Source of the DNA: an uncultured delta proteobacterium
Lineage (GTDB): Bacteria; Desulfobacterota; Desulfobacteria; Desulfobacterales; B30-G6
Assembly: GCA_963823335.1 (NCBI GenBank)
Contig: CAWGLD010000006.1
Location: 64,001 to 128,000, forward strand
Direction: 5' to 3'
Length of the DNA stretch: 64,000 nucleotides
The notes beneath the pieces were generated by a model. The model made no database searches. It was not told the origin of the DNA and saw only the letters and a program-made list of their open reading frames with translations. This document shows positions 11,507-46,104 of this stretch, in pieces. The position numbers were made by a program, and so were the translations under genes. Position 1 is the first letter of the stretch, and each line of letters starts with the position of its first letter.

Positions 11507-11536
11507 TATTTGTTCCCTTACGTAAAGGAGGACCTT

Positions 11537-12649: not shown

Positions 12650-12699
12650 GACATTTATTTTGCAACGCACCCAATCAATCATATGAAAGGACACTAAAA

Positions 12700-13788
12700 A
12701 TGAAAAAAGTACTAAAAGACTGGATCGTACCCTGGCTCTATACGGCTAGAGAATATAATGTCGGCATTCTGGACAAGGCATGGGCCAATCCGGACCACGC
12801 CCGCCTCATGCTCAATGAAAACCCCATTCAACCCTCGGAAAAGGTGGTGGAGGCAGTGGCGCAAGCCATCCGCAATGGCAACCGCTATCCTGACAGCTTT
12901 CTGCGCTTGAGGACCAAAATCGGCAAGATGTATGGCCTGGGACCGGACAACGTGGCACTTTGCAATGGTTCTTCTGAGACCATCGATGCCATGATGCGTG
13001 TTTTCCTGCAGCCTGGCGACGAGTTCATGCTGTCCACGCCGACCTTCGAGCTTTTTCCACCGCGTGCAGAGCTGTGCAATGCCAAGGTTGTTTCAATCCC
13101 GGTTCGGGAAGAAGACCTGCAGTATGATGTCGATGCGATGCTGGCCGCCATCAACGACAGGACCAAACTGATCCTGATCATCAACCCTAACAACCCCACC
13201 GGCGTCTTCATCGATGATGCCGATCTGGACCGATTCTGTGAAACGGGTGTCCCCCTCTGTGTGGACGAGGCTTACCTGGACTACAACCCTGACAGACCTT
13301 CGAAAGCGTATCTGATCAAGAAATATCCCCAGGTATTCCTGTCGGTAACTTTTTCCAAGGCCTATGGGTTTGCAGGCATTCGTTTCGGGTTCGTACTGGG
13401 AACCGAAGAGATGATCGCCGCCTTCAACCGCATGTTCCTGCCCTGGAACGTGAGCCTGATGTCCGCTGCCGCTGCTGAAGCCATCCTCGACAATCCAGAC
13501 GAGGTCAAGCAAAAGGTCGCGCACAACAACAAGTGGATGGCTGTTTTTTCCGAAGAACTCAAGAAGCTGGGGCTCAAACCTTTTCCGGCCAATGGTAATT
13601 ACATGCTTATCGACGGTACCATGACGGGCAAGAGCACCGAAGAAATCCTCAAAGCCGCTCTTGACGAAAAAATATATCTCAAGAAAATAGGTGAAATCCA
13701 CGGGAAGACCGGCTATTTCAGGGTAACCCCTGGAACGGATGCAGAAAACGAGAAGTTCATAAAATTTATCCGCGCTTATTTCGCATAA
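12700..13788 (+). CDS. HisC-like PLP-dependent aminotransferase (class I/II)
   Basis: LNENP, NPNNPTG, VDEAY, TFSKAYGFAGIRFG; not in a his operon. Confidence 0.88.
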   Translation: MKKVLKDWIVPWLYTAREYNVGILDKAWANPDHARLMLNENPIQPSEKVVEAVAQAIRNGNRYPDSFLRLRTKIGKMYGLGPDNVALCNGSSETIDAMMRVFLQPGDEFMLSTPTFELFPPRAELCNAKVVSIPVREEDLQYDVDAMLAAINDRTKLILIINPNNPTGVFIDDADLDRFCETGVPLCVDEAYLDYNPDRPSKAYLIKKYPQVFLSVTFSKAYGFAGIRFGFVLGTEEMIAAFNRMFLPWNVSLMSAAAAEAILDNPDEVKQKVAHNNKWMAVFSEELKKLGLKPFPANGNYMLIDGTMTGKSTEEILKAALDEKIYLKKIGEIHGKTGYFRVTPGTDAENEKFIKFIRAYFA

Positions 13789-14045
13789 ATTATCAAAAAA
13801 AATATAGATCTCCCAAGCTAAAATCGGACATTCCATGAGAAGGCAGTTGTTTCCTCTTTCATGGAATGATCCGGTTTCTTGTACCTGAGCGGCACACATG
13901 ATTGGGTGTGCCGAAATGGACCACTCGGTTTATTTCCTCTTGTTTTGTCTGAATAATTCATATAGGGAATTCCCAAACAATGGAACCTCCTCAAAATTAA
14001 AGACGTTCCCAAATCACCGACCGACACCTTAGAAAGGGAAGCTGA

Positions 14046-14891
14046 ATGGATATCTATTACATCGACGGGCAGTATGTAGATGAGGACAAATGTGTACTGT
14101 CCGTGAAAGACATTATCGTTCTGAGGGGTTTTGGTGTATTCGATTTCTTGATTACCTATAACAAACGACCCTTCTATTTAAAGGAACACGTTCAACGCCT
14201 GGAAACATCAGCCCAAAAAATTGGACTCAAGATAAGACACGCCAACGACGAGATCTGTCGTATTGTCGAAGAAACAATCCGGCGTAACACCCACCACGAT
14301 GAATCGAACATCCGTATCGTTTACACCGGCGGCATCAGCTCGGATGGCGTCACACCAGAGGGAAACGGATACCTGATCGTCATGGTGACACCCAAACACC
14401 AACTGCCTGAATGGTGGTATTCCGACGGTGCAAAATTGATTACCGCGGAGATCGAGCGTTTTATCCCCGGCGCCAAAAGCACCAACTATCTGACAGCGGT
14501 ATGGGCTCTGGAGCGGGCACACGCCATGGGTGCCATCGAGTCCATCTATGTGGATCGCAACAACCGACTTCTTGAAGGCACCACCACGAATTTTTTCTGT
14601 TTCAAGGAGAACAAACTTATCACACCCAAACTGGATATATTGCCGGGTATTACGCGCAGTGTACTGGTGGACCTGGTCGAGGGACACTTTGATCTGGAAA
14701 TCAGGGAAATCCATAGGGCTGAACTCTCCTCCATGGAAGAGGTTTTCATTTCTGCCTCTAATAAAGAGATCGTACCGATTATAGAAGTGGACGACATCAA
14801 AATCGGAAACGGTCGGCCCGGTCAGAGAACACAAAAAGTGATGCAGCTTTTCAAAGACTACACCACTGCGTACGGACAGGGAAAGGTGTGA
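14046..14891 (+). CDS. Class IV aminotransferase, D-amino-acid transaminase-like
   Basis: RGFGVFD, AKSTNYL PLP-Lys, EGTTTNF, LPGITR. Confidence 0.88.
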   Translation: MDIYYIDGQYVDEDKCVLSVKDIIVLRGFGVFDFLITYNKRPFYLKEHVQRLETSAQKIGLKIRHANDEICRIVEETIRRNTHHDESNIRIVYTGGISSDGVTPEGNGYLIVMVTPKHQLPEWWYSDGAKLITAEIERFIPGAKSTNYLTAVWALERAHAMGAIESIYVDRNNRLLEGTTTNFFCFKENKLITPKLDILPGITRSVLVDLVEGHFDLEIREIHRAELSSMEEVFISASNKEIVPIIEVDDIKIGNGRPGQRTQKVMQLFKDYTTAYGQGKV

Positions 14892-14892
14892 C

Positions 14893-16080
14893 ATGGAAGC
14901 CATGCCCGGCCCAGCCGGTGACATTCCTCCCCTGACCTGGGCGGAAATCGATCTTGGTGCGCTGGCACATAATTATCGTGAATTGCGACGTGTCACCAAA
15001 TCGTCTGCTGTCATGATGGCTGTTGTAAAAGCGGATGGATATGGCCATGGTGCACCCCAGGTGGCCCGGGTGGCCCTTGAAAATGGTGCCGAACTTCTCG
15101 CAGTGGCACGTATGGGTGAGGCTATCAGACTTCGGGAAGCCGGTATATCGGCACCCATACTTCTTTTTGGTCACAGCTTGCCCGCGTATGTAGATATTCT
15201 GGCAGTCAGTGACATTCGGGCGGCCCTTAACTCACTGGATGGTGCCCGTTCCATTTCAGCGCAGGCCGTACGCCGCAAAACAAGCATCAAGGCCCACATC
15301 AAGGTTGACACCGGCATGGGGCGTCTGGGTCTTCTGGCGGATGAAATTGCAATCCAGACAGATGCCGGCGAACAGTTCAACCGTGCCGTAAATGACATTC
15401 TGTCTATCTCCGCCCTTCCCGGCATCGAAGTGGAGGGTATTTTTACGCATTTTGCCACTGCAGACAGTCGGGACAAGCGTTATGCAACGACCCAGTTGTC
15501 GCGCTTTACCAGACTGCTGGAAACGCTGGAAACGCATTCTTTACGGGTCCGGTATCGCCACGCCGCCAACAGTGCCGCCATCATTGAAATGCCCGAGTCC
15601 CACCTGGATCTGGTGAGACCCGGAATTGCCCAATATGGACTCTGGCCGTCGGATGAAGTGGACAAGCAACGAATCCATCTCAAGCCGGTAATGTCCATTA
15701 AATCCAGGGTAATTCATGTAAAGGATGTTGGTGCTGATTTTGCCGTCAGCTACGGCAGCACCCATGTTACATCCCATCCCACACGGATTGCCACCATTCC
15801 CATCGGTTACGCCGACGGATACAACCGGGTCCTTTCCTCCAATGGCTATATGCTGGTAAAGGGTGTGCGAGCTCCTATCATCGGCAGGGTTTGTATGGAT
15901 CTGACCATGATCGATGTGGGTCATGTGCCGGATGTTTCTCTCGAAGATGAAGTCGTTATACTGGGATCGCAAGGAGACGAAACCATCTCAGCAGATGAGA
16001 TTGCAAAAAAGGCAGGCACCATTAATTACGAAATCGTATCGTCGCTGACATCCAGGGTACCCAGGGTATATGTTCGGTGA
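14893..16080 (+). CDS. alr: Alanine racemase
   Basis: AVVKADGYGHG, HIKVDTGMGRLG, HAANS, VSYG, GYADG, GRVCMD. Confidence 0.96.
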   Translation: MEAMPGPAGDIPPLTWAEIDLGALAHNYRELRRVTKSSAVMMAVVKADGYGHGAPQVARVALENGAELLAVARMGEAIRLREAGISAPILLFGHSLPAYVDILAVSDIRAALNSLDGARSISAQAVRRKTSIKAHIKVDTGMGRLGLLADEIAIQTDAGEQFNRAVNDILSISALPGIEVEGIFTHFATADSRDKRYATTQLSRFTRLLETLETHSLRVRYRHAANSAAIIEMPESHLDLVRPGIAQYGLWPSDEVDKQRIHLKPVMSIKSRVIHVKDVGADFAVSYGSTHVTSHPTRIATIPIGYADGYNRVLSSNGYMLVKGVRAPIIGRVCMDLTMIDVGHVPDVSLEDEVVILGSQGDETISADEIAKKAGTINYEIVSSLTSRVPRVYVR

Positions 16081-16118
16081 GTTTGTTGAGTTCTTTGCGT
16101 TTGTTGGGTGTCCCTTAA

Positions 16119-16184
16119 AAATTGTTTTAACGCTGGTAAACGAACGAACATCGAACATCGAACGTCCAACATCGAATTTTGAAT
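16119..16184 (+). repeat. AACATCG heptamer array inside a ~66-bp unit duplicated at 62002-62067
   Basis: AAATTGTTTTAA...GAACATCGAACATCGAACGTCCAACATCGAATTTTGAAT at both loci. Confidence 0.85.
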
Positions 16185-17426
16185 ATGAATCGCCCACCTG
16201 AAAATACAATAGACTGGCAGACAGGCACATACCACAATCCTCGGGCCGGAGAAACACAGGCTGACGTCATCATATGCTCTGACTGGGCACCTATTCGCGG
16301 ATTCAAGGATATCATTCTCCAGAATCCGGAAGCTGTTTATGGTGATCTGCTTCCGGAGTTGCGAGACGGCGATATGCGGATCGTCAACCTGGAATGCCCC
16401 CTAGTGGATCAAGGGGAGCCGGTTTCCAAAAGTGGGGCTGTCCTGAAGGGTCTTTCCGGGCACATTACAGGACTCACCAGCATTCCCTTCGAGGTGGCCA
16501 CCCTGGGCAATAATCACGTTTTTGATTACGGGACCGAAGCCTTTGTCCAAACCAGGGATCTGCTGTATCAAAACAATATCAAGACCGTTGGTGCCGGCAT
16601 GTCCATAGAGGAAGCGGCAGTGCCGTTGATTGTCACATCCAGGGGTGTTGCCATCGCTATTGTCAATTTCAGTGAAGGTGAGGATCTGACCGCTGCAGGA
16701 GAAAACCCGGGCGTTCATGGCTGGGAAATCGATCGGGTGGTCGCTCAGGTTCAGGAGCTGCAGAGTCAGGTCAATGCAACCATCGTTGTCTGCCATGGTG
16801 GTGTCGAGTACATCCCCTATCCCCCACCCTACCTGGCTGCCGCATTTCATCGGATTGCCGATGCGGGTGCAGACCTGATCATCGGTCACCACCCCCACGT
16901 ACCCCAAGGTGTTGACATACGAAACCATGTGCCCATCTGCTACAGCCTGGGCAATTTTGTTTTCTTTCAACACACCCGGCTGCAGTTCAGAAAAATAGGT
17001 TATTTTGTTAAAGCCGGAATTGCCGAAAATGGCCTCGCTCGAATGCGTATCGTACCTTACGAAATCTTGCCCACCCGACTTCAATTGTTGAAAGAGGAAA
17101 AGTATCGCTGGATAATGAAAAAACTCAAAACCATATCTGAGCCTTTGAACGATTTATCCCGGATCATCCAGGCCTGGAACGGATTTATAAAACACTATGG
17201 TATCAACGGTTTTCAGAATGAGGTTGCCAACATTATGGAAACCCTTGCCCGGGAACCTGCCAAAGGAGCCGCCATGTTCCGAAACCGGATCACGACCATG
17301 CAGCACAACCAGCACCTGGTTGACACCATGACCCGTATCATGGACGGAACCATTGACCAGGCACCGGCATGGGCTCTCGACACTGTGTCCGAATGGCTCA
17401 CACGGCAGATATCAGACAAACAGTAG
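16185..17426 (+). CDS. CapA/PGA_cap family metallophosphoesterase-fold protein
   Basis: VNLECP, LGNNHVFDYG, GAG, HGG, GHHPHV, YSLGNF; no signal peptide. Confidence 0.88.
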   Translation: MNRPPENTIDWQTGTYHNPRAGETQADVIICSDWAPIRGFKDIILQNPEAVYGDLLPELRDGDMRIVNLECPLVDQGEPVSKSGAVLKGLSGHITGLTSIPFEVATLGNNHVFDYGTEAFVQTRDLLYQNNIKTVGAGMSIEEAAVPLIVTSRGVAIAIVNFSEGEDLTAAGENPGVHGWEIDRVVAQVQELQSQVNATIVVCHGGVEYIPYPPPYLAAAFHRIADAGADLIIGHHPHVPQGVDIRNHVPICYSLGNFVFFQHTRLQFRKIGYFVKAGIAENGLARMRIVPYEILPTRLQLLKEEKYRWIMKKLKTISEPLNDLSRIIQAWNGFIKHYGINGFQNEVANIMETLAREPAKGAAMFRNRITTMQHNQHLVDTMTRIMDGTIDQAPAWALDTVSEWLTRQISDKQ

Positions 17427-17441
17427 GAAAATTGATTGACC

Positions 17442-18371
17442 ATGCCCCTTTCTGAATCCAAAAAAATCAGCCGGTTTTATGAGAAAAAGCAGGTCACAGT
17501 TCTCATTACCGACTCCGGTCTGGGGGGTATCTCCATTTGTGCAGAAATCGCCAATGAATTAAGGCGACGTCATATATTCGAAAATGTTTCACTGGTCTAT
17601 TTCAACGCCTGGCCGGAGAAAGACCGGGGGTACAATCGGCTCAGCAACACAGCCGAAAGAATCCAGGTGTTTGATGGCGCTCTGGAAGGGATGATGAAAT
17701 TTAAGCCGGATTTCATCATGATCGCCTGCAATACCCTGTCTGTTCTCTATCATCGTACACAATTCAGTCACCATGTACGAATCCCGGTTGTTGACATTGT
17801 CGGGTTTGGCGTGGAGATGATGGCCGATGCTCTGGAGAAATCATCACAGGCCCAGGCAGTTATCCTGGGAACCGTAACCACCATCGACAGCCGGTTGCAT
17901 CACGATCAGCTGATTCAAAGAGGGATTCAACCCGCACAAATCGTTTCGCAGCCGTGCGATCAGCTTGCAACACAGATCGAAATGGGACCCGACAGCTCTA
18001 TTGTATCTGAAATGATTGATACGTTCATGCGCCAGGCAGCCCGAAATATCGATCCTGGTTCAAGTAAAATATATGCTGCCCTTTGCTGTACCCATTTTGG
18101 CTATTGTCAGGAATTGATTCAAGCCAGCCTGGCTGATTTCGCAAATAAACCGGTGACAATTCTAAACCCGAACCATAAAATGGCCGCCTGTCTGTCGGCC
18201 AACGGCCGCAAGATTCGTTTTTCAGACACCAAAATTCAAATACAGGTGGTTTCAAAGATCACTTGGGAAGAAAGGAAGATCAATTCCATTTCGAGTTTCA
18301 TTCAGTCGCTTTCTGCTGAAACAGCGCATGCTTTAATGAACTATGCGCAAATTCCAAACCTGTTTAGCTGA
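17442..18371 (+). CDS. Asp/Glu racemase family (glutamate racemase-like)
   Basis: DSGLGG, ACNT and CCTHF catalytic Cys motifs. Confidence 0.88.
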   Translation: MPLSESKKISRFYEKKQVTVLITDSGLGGISICAEIANELRRRHIFENVSLVYFNAWPEKDRGYNRLSNTAERIQVFDGALEGMMKFKPDFIMIACNTLSVLYHRTQFSHHVRIPVVDIVGFGVEMMADALEKSSQAQAVILGTVTTIDSRLHHDQLIQRGIQPAQIVSQPCDQLATQIEMGPDSSIVSEMIDTFMRQAARNIDPGSSKIYAALCCTHFGYCQELIQASLADFANKPVTILNPNHKMAACLSANGRKIRFSDTKIQIQVVSKITWEERKINSISSFIQSLSAETAHALMNYAQIPNLFS

Positions 18372-18438
18372 AAAGAGTTTGCCTGCCCGATCTGCATACA
18401 ATCCGAATATGACCCAATCAAATCTGGAGGAAGTGAGC

Positions 18439-19431
18439 ATGAAAAGAGTATTAATCATTACCGGCCCCGGCGGCGATGCCCAGGGGTGGGGAAATCTTGA
18501 AGTAACCCAAACACTCAGCCAGGCACTCAATTCCGATGGCAAGTCGTCTGAAATAGTATTTGTCAATACCATGGATGGCTTTTTAAAAGCCATTGACAGC
18601 CATACCTATGATATTGTCTGGAGTGCCCTTTACTATATCTCCGAAAAGGAAGATATCATCGGGTTGAACATTGATGACGGTGCCTGGCTGGCGGACGAAC
18701 TCGATCGGCGTCAGATACCCTATATCGGTCCCAGTGCCCAGACCATGAAAGATCTCATCAATAAAACAGCAACCCACCGCATTCTCAGTTCAAAAAACAT
18801 CTCCGTTCCCGAACATCATCAGGTGGATATGGGAGAATCTGTACCCGACATTCGATTTCCGGCTTTTGTCAAGCCCAGTTGTGAATCGCGATCTGTTGGG
18901 ATCAGTGATGAGAGCGTTGTCCAGAACACGACAGAGCTTCAAAAACGGATTGCATTCATCCACAGGCAATTCGAACAGCCGGCCCTGATCGAGGATTACC
19001 TTCCGGGAGAAGAATACACAGTTCTGATGATCGGCAATGGAAAAGATCAGATATTCATTCCCGGTGTCGTGACGGTAAAGGGGGGCAACAACGGAAAATT
19101 TCCTATCCTGCGAAGTGACATGCGGGGAGTCGGCATTACCAAAATTGGCATACCCGAACATAGTGCCGAGGCAGCCAATGCCTTGTGCCTAGAAGCGGTT
19201 GAAGCTTTGAACTGTTTGGATCATGTTCGTGTGGATATGCGTTTCGACACCCATTCAAAATTGAAAATCATCGAAGTCAACGGTATCCCGGGACTCAAGC
19301 CGATCAAAAGCTGGAGCCCCCAGATGTTTACACTGTACAATAAATCACCTCAAGGTCCTCTTGAGGATTATCGACTCCTGCTGCATAAAATTGTGGATTC
19401 CGGCCTCACACGCTACAATATATCGCTTTGA
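18439..19431 (+). CDS. D-Ala-D-Ala ligase-like ATP-grasp enzyme (divergent)
   Basis: IPYIGPS, FVKPSCESRSVGI, IEDYLPGEEYTV, RVDMR, EVNGIPG; GGAGG RBS before ATG 18439. Confidence 0.85.
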   Translation: MKRVLIITGPGGDAQGWGNLEVTQTLSQALNSDGKSSEIVFVNTMDGFLKAIDSHTYDIVWSALYYISEKEDIIGLNIDDGAWLADELDRRQIPYIGPSAQTMKDLINKTATHRILSSKNISVPEHHQVDMGESVPDIRFPAFVKPSCESRSVGISDESVVQNTTELQKRIAFIHRQFEQPALIEDYLPGEEYTVLMIGNGKDQIFIPGVVTVKGGNNGKFPILRSDMRGVGITKIGIPEHSAEAANALCLEAVEALNCLDHVRVDMRFDTHSKLKIIEVNGIPGLKPIKSWSPQMFTLYNKSPQGPLEDYRLLLHKIVDSGLTRYNISL

Positions 19432-19525
19432 TTATACCCTTTGATGTGATAAGGCTTTGTGCGGTTTTTCTGATCTGGCCCAGAGGACCAGGTTTTTAAT
19501 GACGGAATAAATAAAGGTGAATAAC

Positions 19526-20290
19526 ATGAAAATTCTTGTATGTGTCAAACATGTGCCGGATACTGCGGCAAACATCAAGGTCGTGGGAGATAACGGATTT
19601 GACGAGTCGGTAAAATTCGTCATGAATCCCTATGACGAATATGCGGTGGAAGAGGCCGTCAGAACCGTTCAGAAGAACGGCGGTGAAGTAGTGGTGGTAT
19701 CTGTGGGAAAGCCAAGTGCCGCCAACACCCTGCGAAGCGCGCTGGCGGTGGGCGCCGACAGGGGCATCCTTGTCAAGACAGATGCCCAGTTTCTGGACAG
19801 CGAAACGACCGCCCGGGCCCTCAAGGCCGTTATTGATCAGGATGGTGCTCCGGATCTTATTTTTACCGGAAAACAGTCCGTAGACAGCGAAGGCATGCAG
19901 ACCCATTATCGGCTGGCTGGAAAACTGGGCCTCCCTGTTGCATCGGAGGTGTCGGCTTTCAGTATGGAAAACGATAAAGCCATTGTAGAATGTGAAATTG
20001 GCGGTGGCAACCGAGAAGTGATTGAAATGACCATGCCTTGCGTCATCGGTGCTACAAAGGGTTTGAACGAGCCCCGCTACCCCAAACTGCCCGATATTCT
20101 CAAAGCCAAAAAGAAACCTCTTGTTGAAATGGAATTGTCCGATTTGGGCATTGCCATGTCATCGATTTCATCCACGACAAAGCTGACACCGGTAAAAGAA
20201 CGTGGTGCAGCGACGATGCTCCAAGGCTCGGTCGGGGATATGGTTGCAGACCTGGTCAACCGGCTTGAAAACGAGGTTAAGGTTCTTTAA
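19526..20290 (+). CDS. etfB: Electron transfer flavoprotein beta subunit
   Basis: VCVKHVPDT, NPYDEYAVEEA, GKQSVD, NEPRYP. Confidence 0.95.
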   Translation: MKILVCVKHVPDTAANIKVVGDNGFDESVKFVMNPYDEYAVEEAVRTVQKNGGEVVVVSVGKPSAANTLRSALAVGADRGILVKTDAQFLDSETTARALKAVIDQDGAPDLIFTGKQSVDSEGMQTHYRLAGKLGLPVASEVSAFSMENDKAIVECEIGGGNREVIEMTMPCVIGATKGLNEPRYPKLPDILKAKKKPLVEMELSDLGIAMSSISSTTKLTPVKERGAATMLQGSVGDMVADLVNRLENEVKVL

Positions 20291-20412
20291 TAAATTCGGT
20301 GCACGAATTTATTCCGTGCCGGGCCCTTCGGACCCGGGTATCTGCAATATACTTGGGTTTTATTGATAACTACATATTTTTTGATCATCTCCCAAAGAGT
20401 TGATCAAAATGA

Positions 20413-20686
20413 AGGGTTCAAGGATTCCAGGGGTCCAGGGTTCGAGTGAGATGAAGTAGGGTGTCAGCTAAATGCTTAAGAATTATAAAGAGTTAAACGA
20501 TTGGAAAAAATCGTATAAACTTTGTTTGGATAAACGATGATATCTGGCGATTTGGGTTATGTGGAGAAAGAAAGGCTTGAGGAATTAAGAATGAAGATCG
20601 GAGATGTAGAGAGAATGCTAAAAGTGATGATCACATCCCTGGAAAACAAACACTTGAATCCTTGAATCCTGGACTCCTTGAACCCT
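20413..20686 (+). pseudogene. Internally deleted four-helix-bundle (23S rRNA IVP-like) gene flanked by inverted octamer arrays
   Basis: 20472-20540 MLKNYKELNDWKKSYKLCLD and 20537-20665 MISGDLGYVEKERLEELRMKIGDVERMLKVMITSL match the family N- and C-termini; arrays at 20413-20446 and 20653-20686. Confidence 0.8.
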
Positions 20687-20738
20687 TTCTCCCAACTTAT
20701 TGGGAGAAGAACCATATTTTTAACGCACGAGGGAGAGT

Positions 20739-21674
20739 ATGAGCATGTCCAATATTGGTGTATTGATAGAAATGGATGGGCAAGAGATAAAGGCACCCAA
20801 TTACGGTGTCTTGACGGCAGCCTGCGCGGGCGGGAATGTCGTAGCGCTGGTTTTTACCGATGACGGTCAGGCCTGTAAAGGCGAGTTGGAACGATTTGGC
20901 GCAGAGAAGATTGTGACAATGTCTGCGGAGAGTCCGGTTCAAAAGGCAAACCTGCTGGCAGCCGCGATCAAAGAATATGATCTGCGTGTGCTGATGGGAC
21001 TTTCCAGCGCACGGGGTCGCGATCTTCTGAGCCGATGCGCCTGCATACTTGATGCACCGCTGGCTCTGGATGCCATACAAGCAAACCTGTCGGACGGAAC
21101 GGTAGTAAAAAGCCATTTTTCAGGGAAAACAACGGCAGCCATAAAACTCACAGGCGAAACGCTGCTGATCGGCCTGCGTCCCAATGTGATCGAGCCCATT
21201 GAAAATCCCGTGTCCGCTGAACGTATCTCCTTCAGCGCAGAAGCAGGCAACAGCGATGGTTTTAAAGTCCTTGAAGTCAAAAAGGGGGGTTCAGGTGCCA
21301 TTGATCTGACCGAAGCTGAAATTATCATTACCGGTGGACGCCCCATGGATTCGGCTGAGAACTTCAAGATCCTTTATGCTTGTGCCAAGGAGCTGGGCGC
21401 TGCCGTGGGGGCCTCTCGTGCGGCTGTGGACGCAGGTTTCGCACCACACAGCATGCAGGTGGGCCAGACCGGCAAGACGGTTTCGCCCAAACTTTATATT
21501 GGCTGTGGCCTGTCCGGTTCTGTTCAGCATTTTGCTGGAATGAAAACTTCCCGGGTGATTGTGGGTATCAACACGGACAAAGATGCACCCATTTTCGGTA
21601 AGTGCGACTATGGCATCGTAGGGGATCTGTTCGAAGTCGTTCCGGCATTGACGGAAGCACTAAAAGCTCGTTAG
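20739..21674 (+). CDS. etfA: Electron transfer flavoprotein alpha subunit
   Basis: LTEAEIIITGGR, GASRAAVD, QVGQTGKTV, SGSVQH. Confidence 0.95.
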   Translation: MSMSNIGVLIEMDGQEIKAPNYGVLTAACAGGNVVALVFTDDGQACKGELERFGAEKIVTMSAESPVQKANLLAAAIKEYDLRVLMGLSSARGRDLLSRCACILDAPLALDAIQANLSDGTVVKSHFSGKTTAAIKLTGETLLIGLRPNVIEPIENPVSAERISFSAEAGNSDGFKVLEVKKGGSGAIDLTEAEIIITGGRPMDSAENFKILYACAKELGAAVGASRAAVDAGFAPHSMQVGQTGKTVSPKLYIGCGLSGSVQHFAGMKTSRVIVGINTDKDAPIFGKCDYGIVGDLFEVVPALTEALKAR

Positions 21675-21878: not shown

Positions 21879-23159
21879 CTACCGTTTTTCAGGTATGAGT
21901 CCCTTCTCTACCACCATTCTGGCCCAGTCGTCAAAGGCACTCAAATTCGCCGTGGTATGTGCATCCGTATGATAGTCACAACTGGCTACCCGCTGAATGA
22001 CATCAAATGCCTGCCTGTCTTCCGGGAGATACAGTGGTTTCAATTCTGACGAATCCCTGCCGGATTCCAGGTATTCACGATGTGACTGGCAATCGCGCTG
22101 GAATGCATCCTCACTGAAGAAATTGAGATTGTCCAGTACACCGAAACAGTGACGGGCCTTGTGGACACCGAAATCGCAAAGTATTTTTCGCCCGCGTTCC
22201 CCATCGGAAAGGGCCTGTTTGTTCGGGTTCTTTTCACCCGTGCTTCCACCGGACTGAACGGTGGGAAGCCCGGTCACCCACATGTTCAAACGCGCCACGG
22301 CCACATTTAAAAGATTCATGGCATCATTTGAATAATCGAGATCGCCATCGGGTCTTGTGGTGCAGGGCATGCCGCCAAACATGCACAACATTCCGGGGTT
22401 GACTGTCTGGGTTACGGCCAGCATGAACAGGACCTCGGCATGGGTGATCACGATGCAGGCTTCGGGTGTCTGAGGGGCTGTTCTTCCTGCCAGCGGCATG
22501 GTTGTCAAGCGTAGATTGTTTCCAGACTTGGCGCTCTTTATGAGCGCATCCATCATGTTGTCCATGCAGATCAGAGGGGACTTGACACCGCAGATGGAAT
22601 CGTGCCAGTCTTCCCGACCGGAAAACCATTTTACAGCGGCGTCCTCTTCCATGTAGGCGCTGCAGGTAACCTTGATGCAGCCGCTCAGCCGGTCCATGAT
22701 CTGGTTACATTTGAGCGGATCACCTTTTTGGACCTTGACCGGCTGGCTTAGAAATCGAACGACATCGAGGTTTTCCCCAATAACCCCGATGAGATGTTCC
22801 AGTTCTTCGTAGGATGCCGGCATGGGGTAACGATCTGCTTCCCGGTATAAAAATGGTGGAATACCGCCGATCCCTAGCGTGTTTTGCCCCTCGTCGCCTT
22901 GAAACGATTTTGCCGCCGAGGACAGGCATTGATCCACCAATTCCGGAAGTAGATAGATACGACCGGCAGAAGAATCGTAGCCGGCAAGACCGGTGCCTTC
23001 CAAAATAGAAATGACATCCTGGTTTTTTGTTTCTATGCCGACTTCGGCCAGGACTGATTTGGTGGTGTCATGAATTCTCTCATAGGATTCTTTTTCTTTC
23101 AGAAGTGCGTCTTGATAAACTTCGGGAGCCTTTTCTATCAATGCGTTGATATGGGTCAT
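21879..23159 (-). CDS. Divergent MttB-superfamily methyltransferase without pyrrolysine (426 aa)
   Basis: RIHDTTKSVLAEVGI, MPLAGRTAPQT, HAEVLFMLAVTQTVNPG, GLPTVQSGGST; GGAG RBS before ATG 23159. Confidence 0.8.
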   Translation of the reverse strand: MTHINALIEKAPEVYQDALLKEKESYERIHDTTKSVLAEVGIETKNQDVISILEGTGLAGYDSSAGRIYLLPELVDQCLSSAAKSFQGDEGQNTLGIGGIPPFLYREADRYPMPASYEELEHLIGVIGENLDVVRFLSQPVKVQKGDPLKCNQIMDRLSGCIKVTCSAYMEEDAAVKWFSGREDWHDSICGVKSPLICMDNMMDALIKSAKSGNNLRLTTMPLAGRTAPQTPEACIVITHAEVLFMLAVTQTVNPGMLCMFGGMPCTTRPDGDLDYSNDAMNLLNVAVARLNMWVTGLPTVQSGGSTGEKNPNKQALSDGERGRKILCDFGVHKARHCFGVLDNLNFFSEDAFQRDCQSHREYLESGRDSSELKPLYLPEDRQAFDVIQRVASCDYHTDAHTTANLSAFDDWARMVVEKGLIPEKR

Positions 23160-23175
23160 GACATTTTCTCCAGTC

Positions 23176-25599
23176 TTAAGCGAGTATCTTCTTCCGTTCA
23201 GGATCATACAATTGACGGTTGAGTTCCAGTTGGATCGGGAAGACTGTTTTATAAGACTCGATTTCATATCCATCTGTGACCCCGCTCATGTCTGCGGGAA
23301 GATATCCATAACAGATATTTTTTCCGATGGTGTGACCGTACCCTGAACTGGAGGTTACACCCACCACGGTGCCGTTGTGCAGAATAGGCGCGCTTCCCTG
23401 GAGCATTAGCGGCTTTTCCGCATGGATGGTGAAAGTGCACAGCTTCCAAGGGGCACCTTCGGTCTTGATTCTTGCCAGGGCCTCTTTGCCGATAAAATCA
23501 TTCTTGTCAAGCGCAACACAAAAACCCAGACCGACATCAAATGGGGTGTATTCGGGAGTGAGCTCGGAACCCCAGTCGGCGTATCCTTTTTCCAGATGCA
23601 GGGAGGCGATTGTTCGGTATCCGGCGTTTTTAATTCCGAGATCCTGACCGGCCTCCCATAGTGTATCGTATACATGGCCAGCAAATTCTGTGGGGATATA
23701 CAGTTCGTAACCGAGTTCCCCCACATAGGTCACCCGAAAGGAAATGACCGGTGCATACCCTACGCTGAAAGATTTGCAGGTCCCGAACGGAAAACTCTTG
23801 TTGGTCAGGTCTTCTTGGGTTGTTTTTTTCAACAGTTCTCTCGATTTGGGCCCGATGACATTGATGACAGCATAGGCCGACGTAACTTCCCGGAATGAAA
23901 CGGTGCCGTCAGTGGGCATGTGGTTTTCGATCCACCACGATGTGCGGAGACCGAAGGCCGTGCCGACAACGATCATAAATTTATCTGTTGTCAAGCGACC
24001 GACGGTCATGTCACATTCGATGGTGCCGCGTCCATTGCACATCTGCGTGTAGATCACCTTCCCCACAGGCTGGTCGATCTGATTGGCACAAAGCCGGTTC
24101 AGAAACGGAAGGGCGCCCGGACCTTGCACCTCGAATTTGCAGAAAGAGCTCTGGTCGATTAGCACCACATTTTCGCGAGCGTTTTGATGCTCGGCAGCCA
24201 CATATCCAAACCAGTTCGGGGTTTCGAAAGTAACATCATCTTGCGGCTCAATACCTTCCGGCGCAAACCAGTTGGCCCTTTCCCACCCGTATTTTGCCCC
24301 GTAAACGGCACCTTTATCTTTGAGCTGGTAATAGAGGGGGCTACGTCTCACCCCTCTTGCGGAGTCATGCTCTTCGTGAGGCCAATGAATGGTATAATGT
24401 TTGCCGTATAGTTCCCTTGTTCTTTCCACATTGTACCTTCGGCTATGGTGATACGGACCAAATCTTCGGATATCCAGCGGCCAGATATCGAGACTCGGCT
24501 CTCCCTCGATAATCCATTCAGCCATCATCCGCCCGGCGCCACCACCGGCAGCTATTCCGAACGCGTTGAATCCCGCAGCTACGAAACAGTTATCGAGTTC
24601 CGGGGCGGGCCCCATAATGGCATCACCGTCCGGGGTAAATGCCTCCGGCCCATTGACCAGACGGGCAATACCGGCTTCTTCGAGGCACGGCGTTCGCCGC
24701 ATGGCCGGATCTGATAGCGATTGGAAATGGTCATAATCGGGTTCCAGCAACTGAGAAATGAAATCATTGCCCACGCCATTGATGGCCCACGGTATTCCGT
24801 TGCGTTCATAGCCGCCCATGACCAGACCACCCACTTCGTCTTTATAATAGAGAAGACTGTCTTTGTCGCGGATGGTGGGAAGGTTTGGTGGCATCCCCTG
24901 GATCTCATCCGTGACTAGAAACTGGTGCTGGAAAGGAACCAGGGGTATGTTGACGCCCAGCATTTCCCCTACCTGGTATCCCCACATGCCCGTACAGTTG
25001 ACGACAATATCGCATTGAATATCACCTTTGTCGGTTTTTACCGTGGTAACCCGTCTCTTGTCGAATTCAAAGCCGGTCACCAGCGTGTGCTCATATATGC
25101 TCGCACCTCGATTCCTGGCACCTTTGGCCATGGCCTGGGTGATCCCCGCAGGATCCGCCTGGCCATCTGTGGGCATAAAAGCTGCGCCAATAATATCATC
25201 TATAGTAATGATCGGGCAAAGATCGTAAGCCTCCTTGGGCGTGATAATGTTCATCTCCAGTCCGAAACTGCGTGCCGTGGTAGCCCCCTTTTTCAGTTCG
25301 TACATACGCTCTTTTGTGCTGGCCAGATGAAGACAACCACTTTTTTTCCAGCCCGTGGTCAATCCTGTTTCAGCCTCGAGCTGTTCGTAGAGACTAACGC
25401 TGTACTGCAGCATCCGGGTAATGTTTCGTTCACTGCGCAGTTGACCCACAAGCCCGGCAGCATGCCAGGTGGAACCACTGGTGAGCTCTCCCTTTTCGAG
25501 TATCACCACATCGTTCCATCCCATCTTGGTTAGATGGTAGGCTGTGCTGCAACCAATAATGCCACCGCCAATAATTACAACCTGTGCACGATCTTGCAT
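23176..25599 (-). CDS. Dimethylglycine/sarcosine dehydrogenase-like FAD oxidoreductase with GcvT (folate) domain
   Basis: IIGGGIIG, LTSGSTWHAAG, NGPEAFTPD, GWERANWF, YVGELGYE, LEKGY. Confidence 0.9.
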   Translation of the reverse strand: MQDRAQVVIIGGGIIGCSTAYHLTKMGWNDVVILEKGELTSGSTWHAAGLVGQLRSERNITRMLQYSVSLYEQLEAETGLTTGWKKSGCLHLASTKERMYELKKGATTARSFGLEMNIITPKEAYDLCPIITIDDIIGAAFMPTDGQADPAGITQAMAKGARNRGASIYEHTLVTGFEFDKRRVTTVKTDKGDIQCDIVVNCTGMWGYQVGEMLGVNIPLVPFQHQFLVTDEIQGMPPNLPTIRDKDSLLYYKDEVGGLVMGGYERNGIPWAINGVGNDFISQLLEPDYDHFQSLSDPAMRRTPCLEEAGIARLVNGPEAFTPDGDAIMGPAPELDNCFVAAGFNAFGIAAGGGAGRMMAEWIIEGEPSLDIWPLDIRRFGPYHHSRRYNVERTRELYGKHYTIHWPHEEHDSARGVRRSPLYYQLKDKGAVYGAKYGWERANWFAPEGIEPQDDVTFETPNWFGYVAAEHQNARENVVLIDQSSFCKFEVQGPGALPFLNRLCANQIDQPVGKVIYTQMCNGRGTIECDMTVGRLTTDKFMIVVGTAFGLRTSWWIENHMPTDGTVSFREVTSAYAVINVIGPKSRELLKKTTQEDLTNKSFPFGTCKSFSVGYAPVISFRVTYVGELGYELYIPTEFAGHVYDTLWEAGQDLGIKNAGYRTIASLHLEKGYADWGSELTPEYTPFDVGLGFCVALDKNDFIGKEALARIKTEGAPWKLCTFTIHAEKPLMLQGSAPILHNGTVVGVTSSSGYGHTIGKNICYGYLPADMSGVTDGYEIESYKTVFPIQLELNRQLYDPERKKILA

Positions 25600-25915: not shown

Positions 25916-27919
25916 TTACCCCGTTGCCTCATCGACGATTTCAGCAATATCTTTGACAGTTGCATCTTCCCGGCAGTCCGAAATGCCGTCGGTTAGCATG
26001 GTCACACAGAATGGACAGGCCGCGGCAACCGTTTTCGAACCGGTTGACAGTAACTCTTCGGCACGTTCTATGTTGATGCGTTTTCCAATGGTTTCCTCCA
26101 TAAACATCCTTGCGCCACCAGCGCCACAGCAAAAGCCTTTGTCCCCGTGGCGTTCGGGCAAAACCAATTCACCACCTGTGTTAATGCTGCGCAGGAGTTC
26201 TCGCGGAGCAGCGATAATGCCGTTCCACCTCCCCAGATAGCAAGAATCATGAAAAGCAATATCTCCCAAAGAAGTACCGTTGGGCTTCAGACGACCCTGT
26301 TTCACCAAATCCAGCAAAAACGCCGTGTGGTGGACAACGTCAAATTTTGCGCCAAACTGAGGGTATTCGTTTTTTATGATGTTGTAACAGTGAGGGCAGC
26401 CTGTAAGAATTTTTTTGGGTTTGTAGTGATTGAGGGTCTCAACGTTTTCCTGAATCATGGTCTGAGCCAGGTATTCGTTTCCAGCCCTGCGGGCCATATC
26501 TCCGTTACAGCGTTCCTCCTGACCGAGTATGGCAAAATTGATTCCGGCTCTTTTTAATACGCGCACCAGCGCTCGAGATATTTTTTTCCCACGATCGTCG
26601 AATGATCCGGCACATCCGACGAAATAGAGAAGGTCCGTTTCGGGTTGATCCGACATGAGGGGTACATCCATGTCTTTGCACCAGTCAGCCCGGGTGTCGT
26701 CGGAAAACCCCCATGGATTCGACTGGTTTTCCAGATTCGTAAATGTTTCCTGCATTTCCGGCGGGAATGCAGCCTCCATAAGAACCTGGTATTTTCTAGC
26801 TTCCAGGATAATATCCAGATGCTGGATATTGACAGGACAAATGTCTTCGCAGGCCCGGCAGGTAGTGCATGACCACAGGACATCTTCAGTTACGTGAGAC
26901 GCTTCTCGAATCAACGGTTCGACAGCGTCGATGTTGCCTGCCAAAAGTGGTCCTGCCTGATCGAAAAGATCGTGTTTGATATCGGACACCACTCTCTTTG
27001 GTGAAAGAGGCTTGCCGCTGTAGTCTGCCGGACATTGCTCCTGGCACCGGCCACACTCCGTGCAGGCATACAGATCGAGTACCGATTTCCAGTTTAAATC
27101 CGAAACACGGCCGAGTCCGAAGCTGTCCGCATCCTCGTCTTCGATATCTGTTTTAATGATCGCTTTTTCCCGTTCCAAAGGCTTTAAATAAACATTGGGG
27201 ACGGCTGCCAGCAGATGCAGATGCTTGGACCCGGGAATATAAATGAGAAACCCAAGAATCGTCAGGATGTGGATCCAGTAGGATATTTCATACCCTATCG
27301 TTAACTGACCTACAGTCAGAGACGAAAAAGCGAATAGATTCGCCAAACCGGCTGACACCGTGAAAAAGGCTGAATAGTCAAAACCATCCTCAGCGGGTTG
27401 CGACATCTGGAAGGCATTGACAAGGTGAAACGACACGATGATGACGGCTGTGAAAAGAATGATAAGTTTTGCATCCAGATTATTGGTTAAATATTCAGGT
27501 TTTTCAATCAAGCGTCTGTAAAGAGCATACCCAAGCCCAAACAGAACAAAGATTGCGAGGGTGTCTGCGACAAAGAGGTACGCACCATAGAGGCCAGGCG
27601 ATAAATGAGAAACGTGAAAACCGGGAAATACGCCTTGAACCATCAACTCCAGGGAGTGAGGCTGGACAGCTATAAAACCAAAAAATATCAAGGTATGCGC
27701 CATGCCTGGGAGGAACTTTCTCCTGACATTCGACTGGCCGATCACGTCCGTGAAAAGTGTTTTGACCCTCTCGGGAAAACGATCTATTTGCAGGGACGCC
27801 TTGCCTTTTACGGCCATCATAATTCTGACAAGATGCCTGACCTTTACAAAAAAAAGACTGAATGCGGTTATAAGGAAGACCGCCATTATCAAAGATTTAA
27901 TTATCGTATAGGTACCCAT
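25916..27919 (-). CDS. Membrane Fe-S oxidoreductase (FadF/HdrF-like, probable ETF:quinone oxidoreductase)
   Basis: N-terminal TM domain with KHLH, two CxxCxxCxxxCP motifs, two CCG domains. Confidence 0.88.
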   Translation of the reverse strand: MGTYTIIKSLIMAVFLITAFSLFFVKVRHLVRIMMAVKGKASLQIDRFPERVKTLFTDVIGQSNVRRKFLPGMAHTLIFFGFIAVQPHSLELMVQGVFPGFHVSHLSPGLYGAYLFVADTLAIFVLFGLGYALYRRLIEKPEYLTNNLDAKLIILFTAVIIVSFHLVNAFQMSQPAEDGFDYSAFFTVSAGLANLFAFSSLTVGQLTIGYEISYWIHILTILGFLIYIPGSKHLHLLAAVPNVYLKPLEREKAIIKTDIEDEDADSFGLGRVSDLNWKSVLDLYACTECGRCQEQCPADYSGKPLSPKRVVSDIKHDLFDQAGPLLAGNIDAVEPLIREASHVTEDVLWSCTTCRACEDICPVNIQHLDIILEARKYQVLMEAAFPPEMQETFTNLENQSNPWGFSDDTRADWCKDMDVPLMSDQPETDLLYFVGCAGSFDDRGKKISRALVRVLKRAGINFAILGQEERCNGDMARRAGNEYLAQTMIQENVETLNHYKPKKILTGCPHCYNIIKNEYPQFGAKFDVVHHTAFLLDLVKQGRLKPNGTSLGDIAFHDSCYLGRWNGIIAAPRELLRSINTGGELVLPERHGDKGFCCGAGGARMFMEETIGKRINIERAEELLSTGSKTVAAACPFCVTMLTDGISDCREDATVKDIAEIVDEATG

Positions 27920-27950: not shown

Positions 27951-27997
27951 TAACCCCGCAGCAAGCTAAGGGGGAATGCGCTCGTTGTTTCGGTTCA
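27951..27997 (+). repeat. REP-like GCAGCAAGC repeat; supplies the DeoR stop codon
   Basis: CCCCGCAGCAAGCTAAGGGGGAATGCGCTCGTTGTTTCGGTTCA; similar at ~37868, ~48857, ~52155, ~62894. Confidence 0.65.
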
Positions 27998-28807
27998 AGA
28001 CACAATCACGACGTTAACGCCCATTTTATCGATATATTTCTGAAAATCGGAAGGTATTTTCCGGTTGGTTATAAGGACATTAATGTGTTTAAGAGGTGCA
28101 ATCGATATTTCAGCAACCAGACCGAATTTGAAATGATCCGCCATGACGATCACCTGACCCCGCGTCTGCTGAATCATACTTCTTTCGATGGCAGCTATTT
28201 CAAAATCCGGTGTGCTCACACCGGCACTGAGACTGAGCCCGTCGGCACCGATAAAAACCTTGGTGGCGTTTACCTGTCGGATCATTTCCATGGTCAACGG
28301 CCCTGAAAGCGCGTGGGTTGTGGGGTTGTATCTACCGGGCAACAACACCAGCTCGGCTGCCATGTTTACCGTTTCCGACTCCGGTATTACACCGAGATTG
28401 TTGGTAAATATGGTAAAAGGCAGGGCGGGGTCCACAAAACGAACCAACATCGATGCCGTGGTTCCTTCCCCAATGTAAACCGTGTCATGGGGTTCGATCA
28501 GGGACGCAGCTTTTTGGGCAATTTTTTCTTTTTGCTCACGATTCTCATTTATGCTGTTTCGGTAATGAAAGTTGCTTGTCACCCGCTCCTGCCGGAACAC
28601 GGCCCCGCCGTGGGTTCTTTCCACAAGCCCCGATTGTTCTAGAACATCCAGATCTCGGCGAATCGTCATCTCGGATACACCGAGCAGTTTGCTCAAATTT
28701 GAACTCCGCGTACTGAAATCTTCTTTCAGGATATCGATTATTCGCTGCTGCCGCTCGACAGGCAGGAACGAATTATTTTTACTCTTGTTTATCAGTGTGT
28801 GTTTCAT
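27995..28807 (-). CDS. DeoR/GlpR-family transcriptional regulator
   Basis: ERQQRII, VSEMTIRRDL, RTHGGA, GEGTT. Confidence 0.93.
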   Translation of the reverse strand: MKHTLINKSKNNSFLPVERQQRIIDILKEDFSTRSSNLSKLLGVSEMTIRRDLDVLEQSGLVERTHGGAVFRQERVTSNFHYRNSINENREQKEKIAQKAASLIEPHDTVYIGEGTTASMLVRFVDPALPFTIFTNNLGVIPESETVNMAAELVLLPGRYNPTTHALSGPLTMEMIRQVNATKVFIGADGLSLSAGVSTPDFEIAAIERSMIQQTRGQVIVMADHFKFGLVAEISIAPLKHINVLITNRKIPSDFQKYIDKMGVNVVIVS

Positions 28808-28837: not shown

Positions 28838-30355
28838 TCAGGTATTCATTACCAGACTAGCCGGATCGAAGTCGGGATTTTTCGGTTCAACTCCCCATTC
28901 TTTTTCCACTTCAGTCACAAACCTTCGTAAATCAGCGGCTACGGACTCAGAAAGAGGTGTCGGTTTATGGTTGACTAATATATCTTTGACCTTTGCATTG
29001 GCCAAATCATAGGGGTCGGGTTTTCCGGCATTTATCCAGGTGGTTCGATTCATGCGTTGAAAAAATTTCGGTCTGCTTTGTGTCCGCATATATTTCAGGG
29101 TCATGGGTGACATTAGAAAATCGGACTTGGAGCCCCCTTGCCTAACTTCATCCACACATAATGTCTCATCACTGACTTCGACCCCACCAAGAAAATACTT
29201 TACCATATCAATTATGTCGCTATCTAATAACAATTGGGCATAATCCACAACCATGCCACACTCTAACATTCCTGCTCCGTATAAGACATTGTTCCCTGAC
29301 ATTGCCGCAATGAGAGCTGTTAGAGTTTTTTCATGGCCGGCTTGTGCCCCACCGGCGATATTGCTATCCGTCTACGTCCCGCCGCTCCAGGAGGGTACTT
29401 TGTAAAACTGGGCCATTTGGGCGTTCATGGCGGCAAATAACGCCATTTCCGGAGAACCCACCGCAGCTTCGGCACTTTTTAGATCCATTGATGTCGTTGA
29501 ACTGCTGCAAATCACCGGGGCTCCGGGACGCACAGCTTGGTGCATCACGACACAGGCGAGAAATTCGGCATTTTGAACAGCCTGGGTGCCAGCCAGGGTA
29601 ATCGGACTGGTAGCGCCCGAGAGCGCCATCGTTGTAAAACGAACAGGAATGCTGAGTTCGGCGGCCTTCATGCCAATTTCGCAGCAATGTTTGACCAGGC
29701 GCAAAGGGGTAACCGGGCAGGTAGAGGCGCATATCAGGGGGTTATCCACCAAGGTATCTTCTCCACCGGCAATGATGGCTGACATTTGATAGATTTTTTC
29801 CAGACACCTCCCGTCACCGGGTCCTAAGCTGACCGGTTTGTCCGTGTTATTTACAAGTGCTTCATAATTATGGAGTGTATAGGTAACAGGGTCTACATCC
29901 AGAGAAGAAACAGGTCGATGACAAACGCCATAGGCATCCAGTGCATCCATCAATCTTGCTCCGGCAGCCAGATCTTTTTTGGTCGAGTCCCTGATTTTAC
30001 CGGTATTGATATCCACAACACTGACACCTTCGCCAAATGAGGTGAAGGTTACCCTTTTACCTTCCATGATGTAACTTTTATCATGGTTACGTGCGCCCAG
30101 CGTAATTCTGGACGGCGCTGTTCTTATGGCTTTTTCTACAAGGTAGTGAGGTATTTTGACTATTTTTTTGTCGATATCTACACGGCAGCCGATGGAATGG
30201 AAGAGATCGATGGCGTCATCATCTTCCACATAAACACCGGTTTTTTCGAGTATTTCAAGGCTGGCATAGTGGATATCGGTAATCTCATCGTCGGACAATA
30301 CCTTGAAATCAATACCTTTGATTTGATATTTGCCGCTGCAAATGGCACGATTCAT
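28838..30355 (-). CDS. mttB: Trimethylamine:corrinoid methyltransferase MttB, 505 aa, in-frame TAG (pyrrolysine) at codon 328
   Basis: ORFs 29372-30355 and 28838-29302 share a frame and are joined by one TAG (29374-29372) plus 23 sense codons: YKVPSWSGGT-TAG-TDSNIAGGAQAGHEKTLT, the Pyl context of MttB; AGGAGG RBS. Confidence 0.9.
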
Positions 30356-30980
30356 ATTTATCCTCCTTTCACATGGTAATGGTTTTCGGTGTGCGCCTTT
30401 AAAGCTGGATGCTTATCTCACGCGAACCGTGCCACAACTTCCGTATTAAATCTATGGCTTAGCAAAGAAATGCAGCATCGTAGCTGTTGTTTCCCCCGGT
30501 GTATATTATGTTTGAATCTGATGTCAAGTGTTAGTTTTAAAATGATAATGAACATAGAGATAAAAAGGGAAGACAATCATATTTATGGAATTTAATGGAT
30601 ACGAATATTTGTTTTCAATATACTAGATTAATTAGATATAAAAATAGTACAGAATATGTAAACCAGATCTTTCATGTCTGCAAGCGCGTTGCCGCGAGGG
30701 ATTGAAGCTACCCATTTCCAGCTGATTAATTACCTATCGAATCTGTCAATCATCACTAATACGAACATTAATCAATTTAGCTGCATTTTTTTTGACGACA
30801 AATGCAAAACAACCCCTGCATTAACCTGCCTTAAAGTATTGACACGATTCAATATATTTTATATCGTCAACAGATTGTGGTTATGCATATGTTTATGAAA
30901 CGCGTCGTTCTCGCTTATATGGTCAAAGATTTAACATCCTGCTTGCAGGCAAATTTTCTATCCTTAAAGGAATCTCCAAT

Positions 30981-45971: not shown

Positions 45972-46104
45972 CTGTTCACCTTTTTTTTGAGCGGTAAGAC
46001 GTAAGCACGAACGTTATTGTTTTAAGTTTTAGGTTTTAAGTTTTAGGAAGACCCAAGCGAGACGATCGTATTTTTCAATGTCAAAACGTAACACCTAAGT
46101 ACCA

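Follow-up and report, generated by a model that had tools for sequence, protein, structure and literature searches.

Pyrrolysine (Pyl) at residue 334 characterizes MttB of Methanosarcina barkeri, the trimethylamine (TMA):corrinoid methyltransferase represented by PDB entries 7XCL, 7XCM and 7XCN (Li et al. 2023, PMC9842639) and by the family model TIGR02369. Pyl-MttB has already been published for marine Desulfobacterales and other marine Deltaproteobacteria (Kivenson et al. 2021, PMC8318568; Zhang and Gladyshev 2007, PMC1976440), and a comparable account of Pyl genes exists for Bilophila (PMC7593587). Here we analyzed a gene of this type, mttB, located at 28838..30355 on the minus strand of a 64,000-nucleotide (nt) stretch of contig CAWGLD010000006.1 from an uncultured delta proteobacterium of the Desulfobacterales, together with a small conserved hairpin motif that follows the in-frame UAG codon of this gene. 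We refer to the whole stretch as the window, and positions are those of the window unless a contig is named.

The source genome (G000; 4.37 Mb, 93.9% complete) resembles the published Pyl-using Deltaproteobacteria in that it represents a sulfate reducer with both Pyl and selenocysteine (Sec) machinery and with Wood-Ljungdahl genes; selB, tRNA-Sec, acsB and dsrA were all present. Like the published genomes, it has several Pyl MttB and MtbB proteins and many MTTB-family proteins without Pyl (PMC8318568, PMC1976440). Of its 26 MTTB matches, 6 were full-length and contained one TAG, as did 5 mtbB genes, which gives 11 full-length Pyl methyltransferases as compared with 8 reported for the Olavius delta-1 symbiont (PMC1976440). 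Since the trait has been published for this group, mttB alone is ordinary and less remarkable than the initial annotation had held. What is new relative to the published trait is the hairpin motif after the codon, as a selected feature in both mttB and mtbB, and the initial annotation had made no mention of this constrained stretch; the position of the mtbB hairpin had already been drawn in the Rfam model RF02509.

The question addressed is how a cell in which TAG terminates 772 of 3586 genes (21.5%, according to our own gene caller) singles out 11 Pyl codons. Taken together, we consider it probable that this locus encodes a functional Pyl-MttB and that its mRNA contains an element under selection.

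The mttB gene and its amber codon

The reading frame begins with ATG at 30355, preceded by a Shine-Dalgarno-like AGGAGG (30362..30367), and its final stop, TGA, ends at 28838. A single in-frame TAG, codon 328 (29372..29374), lies between them; all these features are on the minus strand. The list of open reading frames (ORFs) had divided the gene into two parts in the same frame, 29372-30355 (327 amino acids) and 28838-29302 (154 amino acids). The initial annotation joined them through the TAG and the 23 sense codons in between, and we confirmed that these are codons 329-351 and that read-through yields a protein of 505 amino acids containing SWSGGT-O-TDSNIAGGAQAGHEKTLT. Its placement of the TAG at the Pyl position was also correct, as the protein aligned without interruption to M. 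barkeri MttB over residues 7-486 (E 1e-94), with the TAG on Pyl334. The Pfam MTTB match spanned residues 16-486 of the read-through protein, and TIGR02369 gave 580.3 bits against a cut-off of 525 over model positions 2-469 of 469.

In the same alignment G108, M243, Y359 and G367 of the mttB product corresponded to G110, M249, Y364 and G372 of M. barkeri MttB, named as active-site or corrinoid-contact residues by Li et al. (PMC9842639), where Tyr364 is catalytic. The codon of Tyr359 (29279..29281, minus strand) comes 3' of the TAG, and therefore a terminated product would lack this residue. The two enzymes differ in one extra residue after Pyl, in a Glu in place of T111 and in the peptide MSGNN in place of LAGAN. 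Unlike M. barkeri, the host is a bacterium with a split PylS, and no corrinoid gene is found near mttB.

The TAG at codon 328 was retained in 15 of 15 ortholog loci of species genomes, whose metagenome-assembled genomes were titled Desulfobacterales, Desulfosarcina, delta proteobacterium or Thermodesulfobacteriota. In comparison with the window gene, the ratio of nonsynonymous to synonymous change (dN/dS) of the ortholog loci was 0.02-0.07 before the TAG and 0.09-0.32 after it; the coding part 3' of the TAG is under purifying selection. One ortholog (locus L038) had a frameshift near codon 47. Further, one contig from a separate DNA run was identical to 29265-29590 (0 differences), and contigs from three estuary RNA runs spanned both sides of the codon, which shows that related sequence was present and not its strand or level.

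The TAG might instead be a nonsense mutation or an assembly error, or the gene might be split into two separately translated proteins. An in-frame ATG at codon 352, a GGAG ahead of the ATG at codon 363 and the presence of the 327-amino-acid product in databases would agree with this. However, such a reading is refuted by the position of the TAG on the Pyl column, by its retention in all 15 ortholog loci and by the match of the separate run. The 23 codons between the two listed ORFs are moreover conserved and include the QAGHEKT motif. The GGAG was missing from the all-clade consensus, and re-initiation at ATG 352 or 363 was rejected since the GGAG is not common to the clades. We regard the probability that the gene is broken or split as close to nil.

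Pyrrolysine genes of the source genome

From the window alone, the initial annotation had proposed that the organism encodes Pyl, and it had seen neither pyl genes nor a corrinoid partner there. Our scan of 46 window ORFs likewise found no pyl gene and no MttC-type protein, and tRNA-Leu was the sole tRNA of the window. The genome contained tRNA-Pyl(CUA), pylSc, pylC, pylD, pylSn and pylB, with all five proteins above curated cut-offs. Both objections that the initial annotation had raised against its own proposal, a TAG off the Pyl column or a complete genome without pyl genes, were removed in this way. It is practically certain, in our view, that the internal UAG is decoded as Pyl by the machinery of this genome.

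The genes tRNA-Pyl(CUA)-pylSc-pylC-pylD-pylSn are consecutive on contig C2 (76649-80184), where a corrinoid gene and an mttB-mtbB pair of Pyl type are its neighbours; two ORFs beside the cluster had no Pfam or NCBIfam match. In a further difference from the published Pyl-using Deltaproteobacteria, pylB is detached from this cluster and lies on contig C1 (1461405-1462487), near a methyl-tetrahydrofolate:corrinoid methyltransferase. The two genes pylB and pylSc were also on different contigs in G001, G004, G005, G006, G008 and G009, and they were adjacent in G002, G010, G011, G012 and G013. Searches of 15 genomes of the family detected pylSc in 13 and pylB in 14. Corrinoid proteins gave 4 matches in the genome (2 over the cut-off) and RamA-type activators 4 matches, none of them in the window.

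We also looked at other TAG codons of the genome. There were 72 TAG-ending genes with a coding-like extension, including the 11 methyltransferases. Twelve of the other 61 were scanned: nine had separate or one-sided domains, two had none, and in one a domain ran across the TAG. At C1:610387-611139 (L308) a RhuM-family domain spans an in-frame TAG with no hairpin 3' of it; the gene is probably broken and does not represent a Pyl protein. A short remnant of a Pyl-type mttB at C5:313174-313551 still has its TAG, and a Pyl mttB at C1:641177-642709, directly before mtbB, has a second TAG near its end. The base 3' of the Pyl TAG was a purine in all 11 Pyl genes (G in 9, A in 2), as compared with 460 of 761 true TAG stops, and this may merely reflect the conserved next residue.

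Suppressed synonymous change after the UAG

The Rfam models RF02510 (PYLIS_3, mttB) and RF02509 (PYLIS_2, mtbB) cover the same 100 nt after the UAG that we analyzed. Judging by their names and span, their source would be Have et al. 2013 (PMC3639795), according to whom the mttB region has no common structure; similarly, Zhang and Gladyshev (PMC1976440) reported no common RNA structure after the UAG of the delta-1 genes. A distal hairpin that coincides with the mtbB one is already part of the structure line of RF02509, and RF02510 draws no hairpin for mttB. The window scored 55 bits with RF02510 (gathering threshold 38). We rejected this match as evidence of a Pyl signal, because 2 non-Pyl paralogs also scored above the cut-off.

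We counted synonymous changes on the tree of each clade, using 128 mttB-like and 50 mtbB genes from related genomes and excluding clusters with fewer than 4 members. In codons +1..+37 after the UAG (approximately 110 nt) all 9 Pyl-mttB clades had ratios of observed to expected changes of 0.35-0.69 (permutation p ≤0.002), and all 5 mtbB clades had ratios of 0.46-0.58 (p ≤0.01). Of two non-Pyl clades, one had a ratio of 1.13 in the same codons (n = 10, p = 0.94) and the other a ratio of 0.82 (n = 4, p = 0.064). Upstream of the UAG the ratios of Pyl clades were scattered around 1. In the clade of the window gene the strongest drop was observed in codons +19..+37 (0.27, rank 1 of 471 windows), and the first 18 codons showed no clear constraint (0.74, p = 0.068). 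The lowest values of the whole gene, calculated for the window gene and 15 orthologs, were in codons 347-364 (29264..29317, minus strand); other conserved regions of the protein showed no fall in synonymous change. Nucleotides after the UAG are under selection, and this selection is tied to the presence of the codon.

A hairpin common to mttB and mtbB

Clade-wise folding of this region revealed a small hairpin with a four-base loop starting with AG, located 74 nt after the UAG in mttB, 77 nt in the clade of the window gene and 80 nt in mtbB. The +77 register corresponds to the one extra codon of this clade as compared with other mttB genes. We fixed a rule on a discovery set (loop start at +66 to +90; 5 contiguous pairs or 6 of 8) and calculated expected counts by synonymous recoding. 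Two sequences were dropped from this set, an mttB because it was truncated and an mtbB because the script did not locate its TAG. The rule was passed by 89 of 105 Pyl mttB genes (11.0 expected), 43 of 49 mtbB (6.2) and 2 of 22 non-Pyl genes (0.9). Held-out set one, composed of other groups of the phylum, gave 21/24 (3.0), 6/6 (1.0) and 1/5 (0.4), respectively. Held-out set two was drawn from metagenomes (the best 80 of 597 matches; GC content of the Pyl genes 44-71%) and gave 84/84 (8.3), 28/30 (4.4) and 1/9 (0.8). Within the source genome 10 of the 11 Pyl genes passed. The rate at true TAG stops (34/761) was similar to those at TAA (71/1527) and TGA (69/1287), and therefore true TAG stops carry the hairpin at the background rate only.

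Covariation supported the apical stem. The mttB pair +68/+83, in which both bases are synonymous third positions, was A-U in 91, G-C in 87, G-U in 7 and A.C in 5 of 208 distinct sequences, and its 11 simultaneous Watson-Crick swaps on the tree were the most of all column pairs (the next had 6). The mtbB pair +77/+86 was paired in 84 of 84 sequences, with five pair types. The loop began with A in 191 of 208 mttB sequences and was AGAU in 81 of 84 mtbB sequences. Common lower helices in mttB were rejected: two other 4-bp helices exceeded 80% pairing, and only the apical helix combined >80% pairing with covariation.

A similar pattern might arise from a DNA palindrome to which a regulator binds, or as a side effect of codon usage where the peptide is conserved. 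The LAGAN peptide alone can encode an inverted repeat, one mttB stem position was C.A in 19 of 208 sequences, and the stem is weak in the window gene. However, synonymous recoding yielded the hairpin about one tenth as often, and uncommon codons were retained even at 64-71% GC. The loop start and spacing are common to mttB and mtbB and the stem sequences differ, and at the mtbB pair +77/+86 there were 10 cases of U-G and none of C.A. Most non-Pyl genes that have the same peptide were without the hairpin (1 of 5 had it), and the absence of a synonymous drop from other conserved parts of the protein also argues against a peptide effect. This explanation is very improbable in our opinion, and we conclude with high confidence that the element is selected at the RNA level.

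The distribution of the hairpin gave further indications. At two metagenome loci the neighbouring genes pointed outside the phylum, one labelled Thermoleophilia or Acidobacteriota (L243) and one clustering with Thermoanaerobacterales proteins (L305); judging from these sequence affinities, the element probably extends beyond the phylum. One mttB (L211, G524:C65) keeps the LAGAN peptide and an otherwise Pyl-type sequence, with TGG at the Pyl position and without the hairpin; it is a natural loss of the amber codon. Most non-Pyl clades were nested among Pyl clades in a tree built by a quick method only, which suggests that amber codon and hairpin were lost together. The clade CL5 (L058, L069, L080 and others) uses Pyl without the AG-loop hairpin and has its synonymous minimum further out, from codon +32. 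This suggests another hairpin beyond codon +32, as a modelled possibility.

Across the family, then, a conserved Pyl-specific structure was seen 3' of the UAG, and in the window gene we observed sequence invariance and loop register with a weak stem. The motif GCAATGTC-AGGG-AACAATGT (29286..29305, minus strand) was identical in all 15 scorable sequences of the clade, and its loop A lies at 29297, 77 nt past the U of the UAG. Lower helices beneath it (29323-29318 with 29268-29263 and 29317-29313 with 29278-29274; 29263..29323, minus strand) are a prediction only. In this clade MSGNN replaces LAGAN and the stem has decayed, with loop register and loop nucleotides unchanged, and a decayed stem with a fixed loop would point to sequence-specific recognition. 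The mttB gene of the window is a degenerate-stem variant and so a natural test case separating loop sequence from stem stability. Gene conversion between paralogs was rejected as a cause of the invariance, the sequence of this clade being different from those of other paralogs.

Possible roles of the hairpin

A related system is the bacterial selenocysteine insertion sequence (SECIS), likewise a small hairpin that lies within the coding region, 3' of a recoded stop codon. Its loop rule (G in the first two loop positions, then G or U) accommodates AGGN, the loop of mttB, and does not accommodate AGAU, the loop of mtbB (PMC13188914). That the element promotes read-through seems to us an evenly balanced proposition. 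In the mechanism that we propose, Pyl-tRNA would compete with the release factor at the UAG. The amine would then add to the Pyl imine, aided by Tyr359 and Gly108, and its methyl group would pass to a RamA-activated corrinoid protein encoded elsewhere in the genome, as MttB biochemistry leads us to expect. From there the methyl group may be transferred to tetrahydrofolate and oxidized by the reverse Wood-Ljungdahl pathway, to which sulfate reduction would be coupled, and the dimethylamine product may be passed to the Pyl-MtbBs. The putative contribution of the hairpin would be to raise the share of ribosomes passing the UAG in a genome where approximately 1/5 of genes end in TAG, probably through a putative protein that reads its AG loop. 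We propose tentatively, and with somewhat less than even confidence, that bacteria which use Pyl, and in which UAG remains a frequent stop, label the Pyl codons by an AG-loop hairpin 74-80 nt downstream, in two unrelated families and with a putative reading factor.

Several observations weigh against this account. The rule was chosen on the discovery set, kin are not independent, and held-out set two includes loci closely related to discovery clades. Three Pyl clades had no hairpin (CL5 0/9, CL7 0/5, CL13 0/2), the two of them large enough to test still showing the synonymous drop, and the mttB of L305 passed the rule only in another register, without the in-register hairpin. In the window gene two of the 8 positions of the apical stem are mismatched (C.A and A.A) and 6 are paired, and no two-sided change was seen at any of the 57 predicted pairs in 15 sequences of its clade. 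As many as 729 of 2000 synonymous recodings folded as stably, and we did not count folding stability as evidence in this gene despite a z of -3.1 against dinucleotide shuffles. The evidence for the element in this gene is its invariance and loop register and not stability. The loop, at 77 nt in this gene and 74-80 nt in its relatives, falls outside the 16-37 nt of bacterial SECIS (PMC13188914). A dedicated elongation factor, a further feature of comparison with SECIS, was not found: the genome contained no second SelB-like factor, with one selB over the cut-off and 8 other matches partial and below it. Finally, Pyl suppression needs no insertion element according to a 2026 paper (PMC13663744), and a 2025 paper states that no mechanism for targeted Pyl insertion is known (PMC12626013).

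Alternatively, the hairpin may influence what becomes of the mRNA and not its decoding. Ribosomes that are halted or terminate at the UAG would leave the element exposed, and it might then prevent Rho loading, mark a nuclease site or bind a regulator, and in this way couple downstream genes to the Pyl supply. A loop 74-80 nt downstream, past the SECIS spacing, lies beyond the ribosome footprint and would suit such a role. The hairpin occurs only together with the in-frame UAG, mttB heads a run of genes on the same strand, and the missing elongation factor points in the same direction. On the other hand, the spacing varies little across two unrelated families and is displaced by exactly one codon in this clade, which fits a position-dependent action, and synonymous changes in the archaeal mtmB element were reported to lower the amount of full-length product (cited in PMC3639795). 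Control of mRNA fate is the main rival to the read-through role and, in our estimation, a real possibility of less than even weight; the present data do not separate the two.

A 20-nt element with compensatory synonymous changes makes the question of codon discrimination testable by a few silent mutations. If the element raises read-through, it would be useful in amber-suppression work. A search of the literature, with thin coverage of subscription journals and without supplements such as the possibly relevant additional file of Have et al., gave no description of a hairpin common to mttB and mtbB.

Substrate and neighbouring genes

We consider TMA the likely main substrate of the mttB product on the grounds of sequence comparison. 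The product shared 35-44% identity with the five other Pyl-MttBs of the genome and formed a separate clade, with at most 47% identity to any non-ortholog match. The gene is the first of a same-strand run. Immediately downstream is a DeoR-family regulator (27995..28807, minus strand; adjoining the ortholog in 6 of 15 loci), followed by an Fe-S/CCG-domain oxidoreductase similar to HdrD/GlpC (25916..27919, minus strand; 7 of 15 loci), a possible acceptor for electron transfer flavoprotein (ETF). Next is a protein similar to dimethylglycine (DMG) and sarcosine dehydrogenases with DAO, FAO_M and GCV_T domains (23176..25599, minus strand), which 9 of 15 ortholog loci also have within the fetched flank, with varying gene order. 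The scan of the window further identified a divergent non-Pyl MTTB-family gene with Ser in the Pyl column (21879..23273, minus strand), whose true start is probably inside that ORF, and ETF beta and alpha genes facing the mttB run (19517..21674, plus strand).

The neighbourhood raises another option, namely that the product is a Pyl enzyme for a different tertiary amine, such as DMG or a related N,N-dimethyl compound, serving the adjacent dehydrogenase-ETF-oxidoreductase unit. The separate clade and the recurrence of the DMG-dehydrogenase-like neighbour agree with it, and the five other Pyl-MttBs could serve TMA. However, the protein passed the equivalog cut-off of TIGR02369, and at least 4 orthologs stand without these neighbours. 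All four DMG-dehydrogenase paralogs of the genome were near some MTTB gene, so that the association of such dehydrogenases with MTTB genes is general and not specific. MtgB, the glycine betaine methyltransferase of Desulfitobacterium hafniense (PDB 2QNE and 9YCE; PMC13080624) and a member of the same family without Pyl (E 1e-62), has its four betaine-binding residues, Y97, R312, H348 and F356, at positions occupied here by E109, W323, Y359 and G367, with 0 of 4 matching; the carboxylate-binding residues R312 and H348 are among those replaced. We find the other-amine explanation unlikely and retain TMA as the main substrate.

The six divergent Pyl-MttB paralogs of the genome raise the question whether Pyl enzymes accept amines besides TMA. 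One of them, at C1:1189225-1190718 (L009:7226-8719), has Arg five residues ahead of Pyl, at the position of R312 of MtgB. This makes it a candidate for a Pyl enzyme whose substrate is a tertiary amine with a carboxylate group, e.g. DMG. A non-Pyl MttB with Ala in the Pyl column stands in tandem with a Pyl mttB at C7:57952-59529 (L011:8953-10530), and in its clade the equivalent of Tyr364 is mostly Phe. This paralog scored 591.8 with TIGR02369, above the cut-off, and therefore TIGR02369 does not discriminate Pyl use.

The plasmid search gave no match, and the promoter and terminator scans were uninformative (18 vs 12.0 expected and 10 vs 10.6 expected, respectively). Elsewhere in the window, at 44337-46503, we observed a large subunit similar to methylmalonyl-CoA mutase and a separate B12-binding subunit, whose B12 domain is not MttC; this cluster also holds hydantoinase/oxoprolinase, CoA ligase, xanthine-dehydrogenase-like and TRAP genes. 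Another cluster, at 11510-19431, contains alanine dehydrogenase, two aminotransferases, alanine racemase, a CapA-like protein, an Asp/Glu racemase-like protein and an ATP-grasp ligase.

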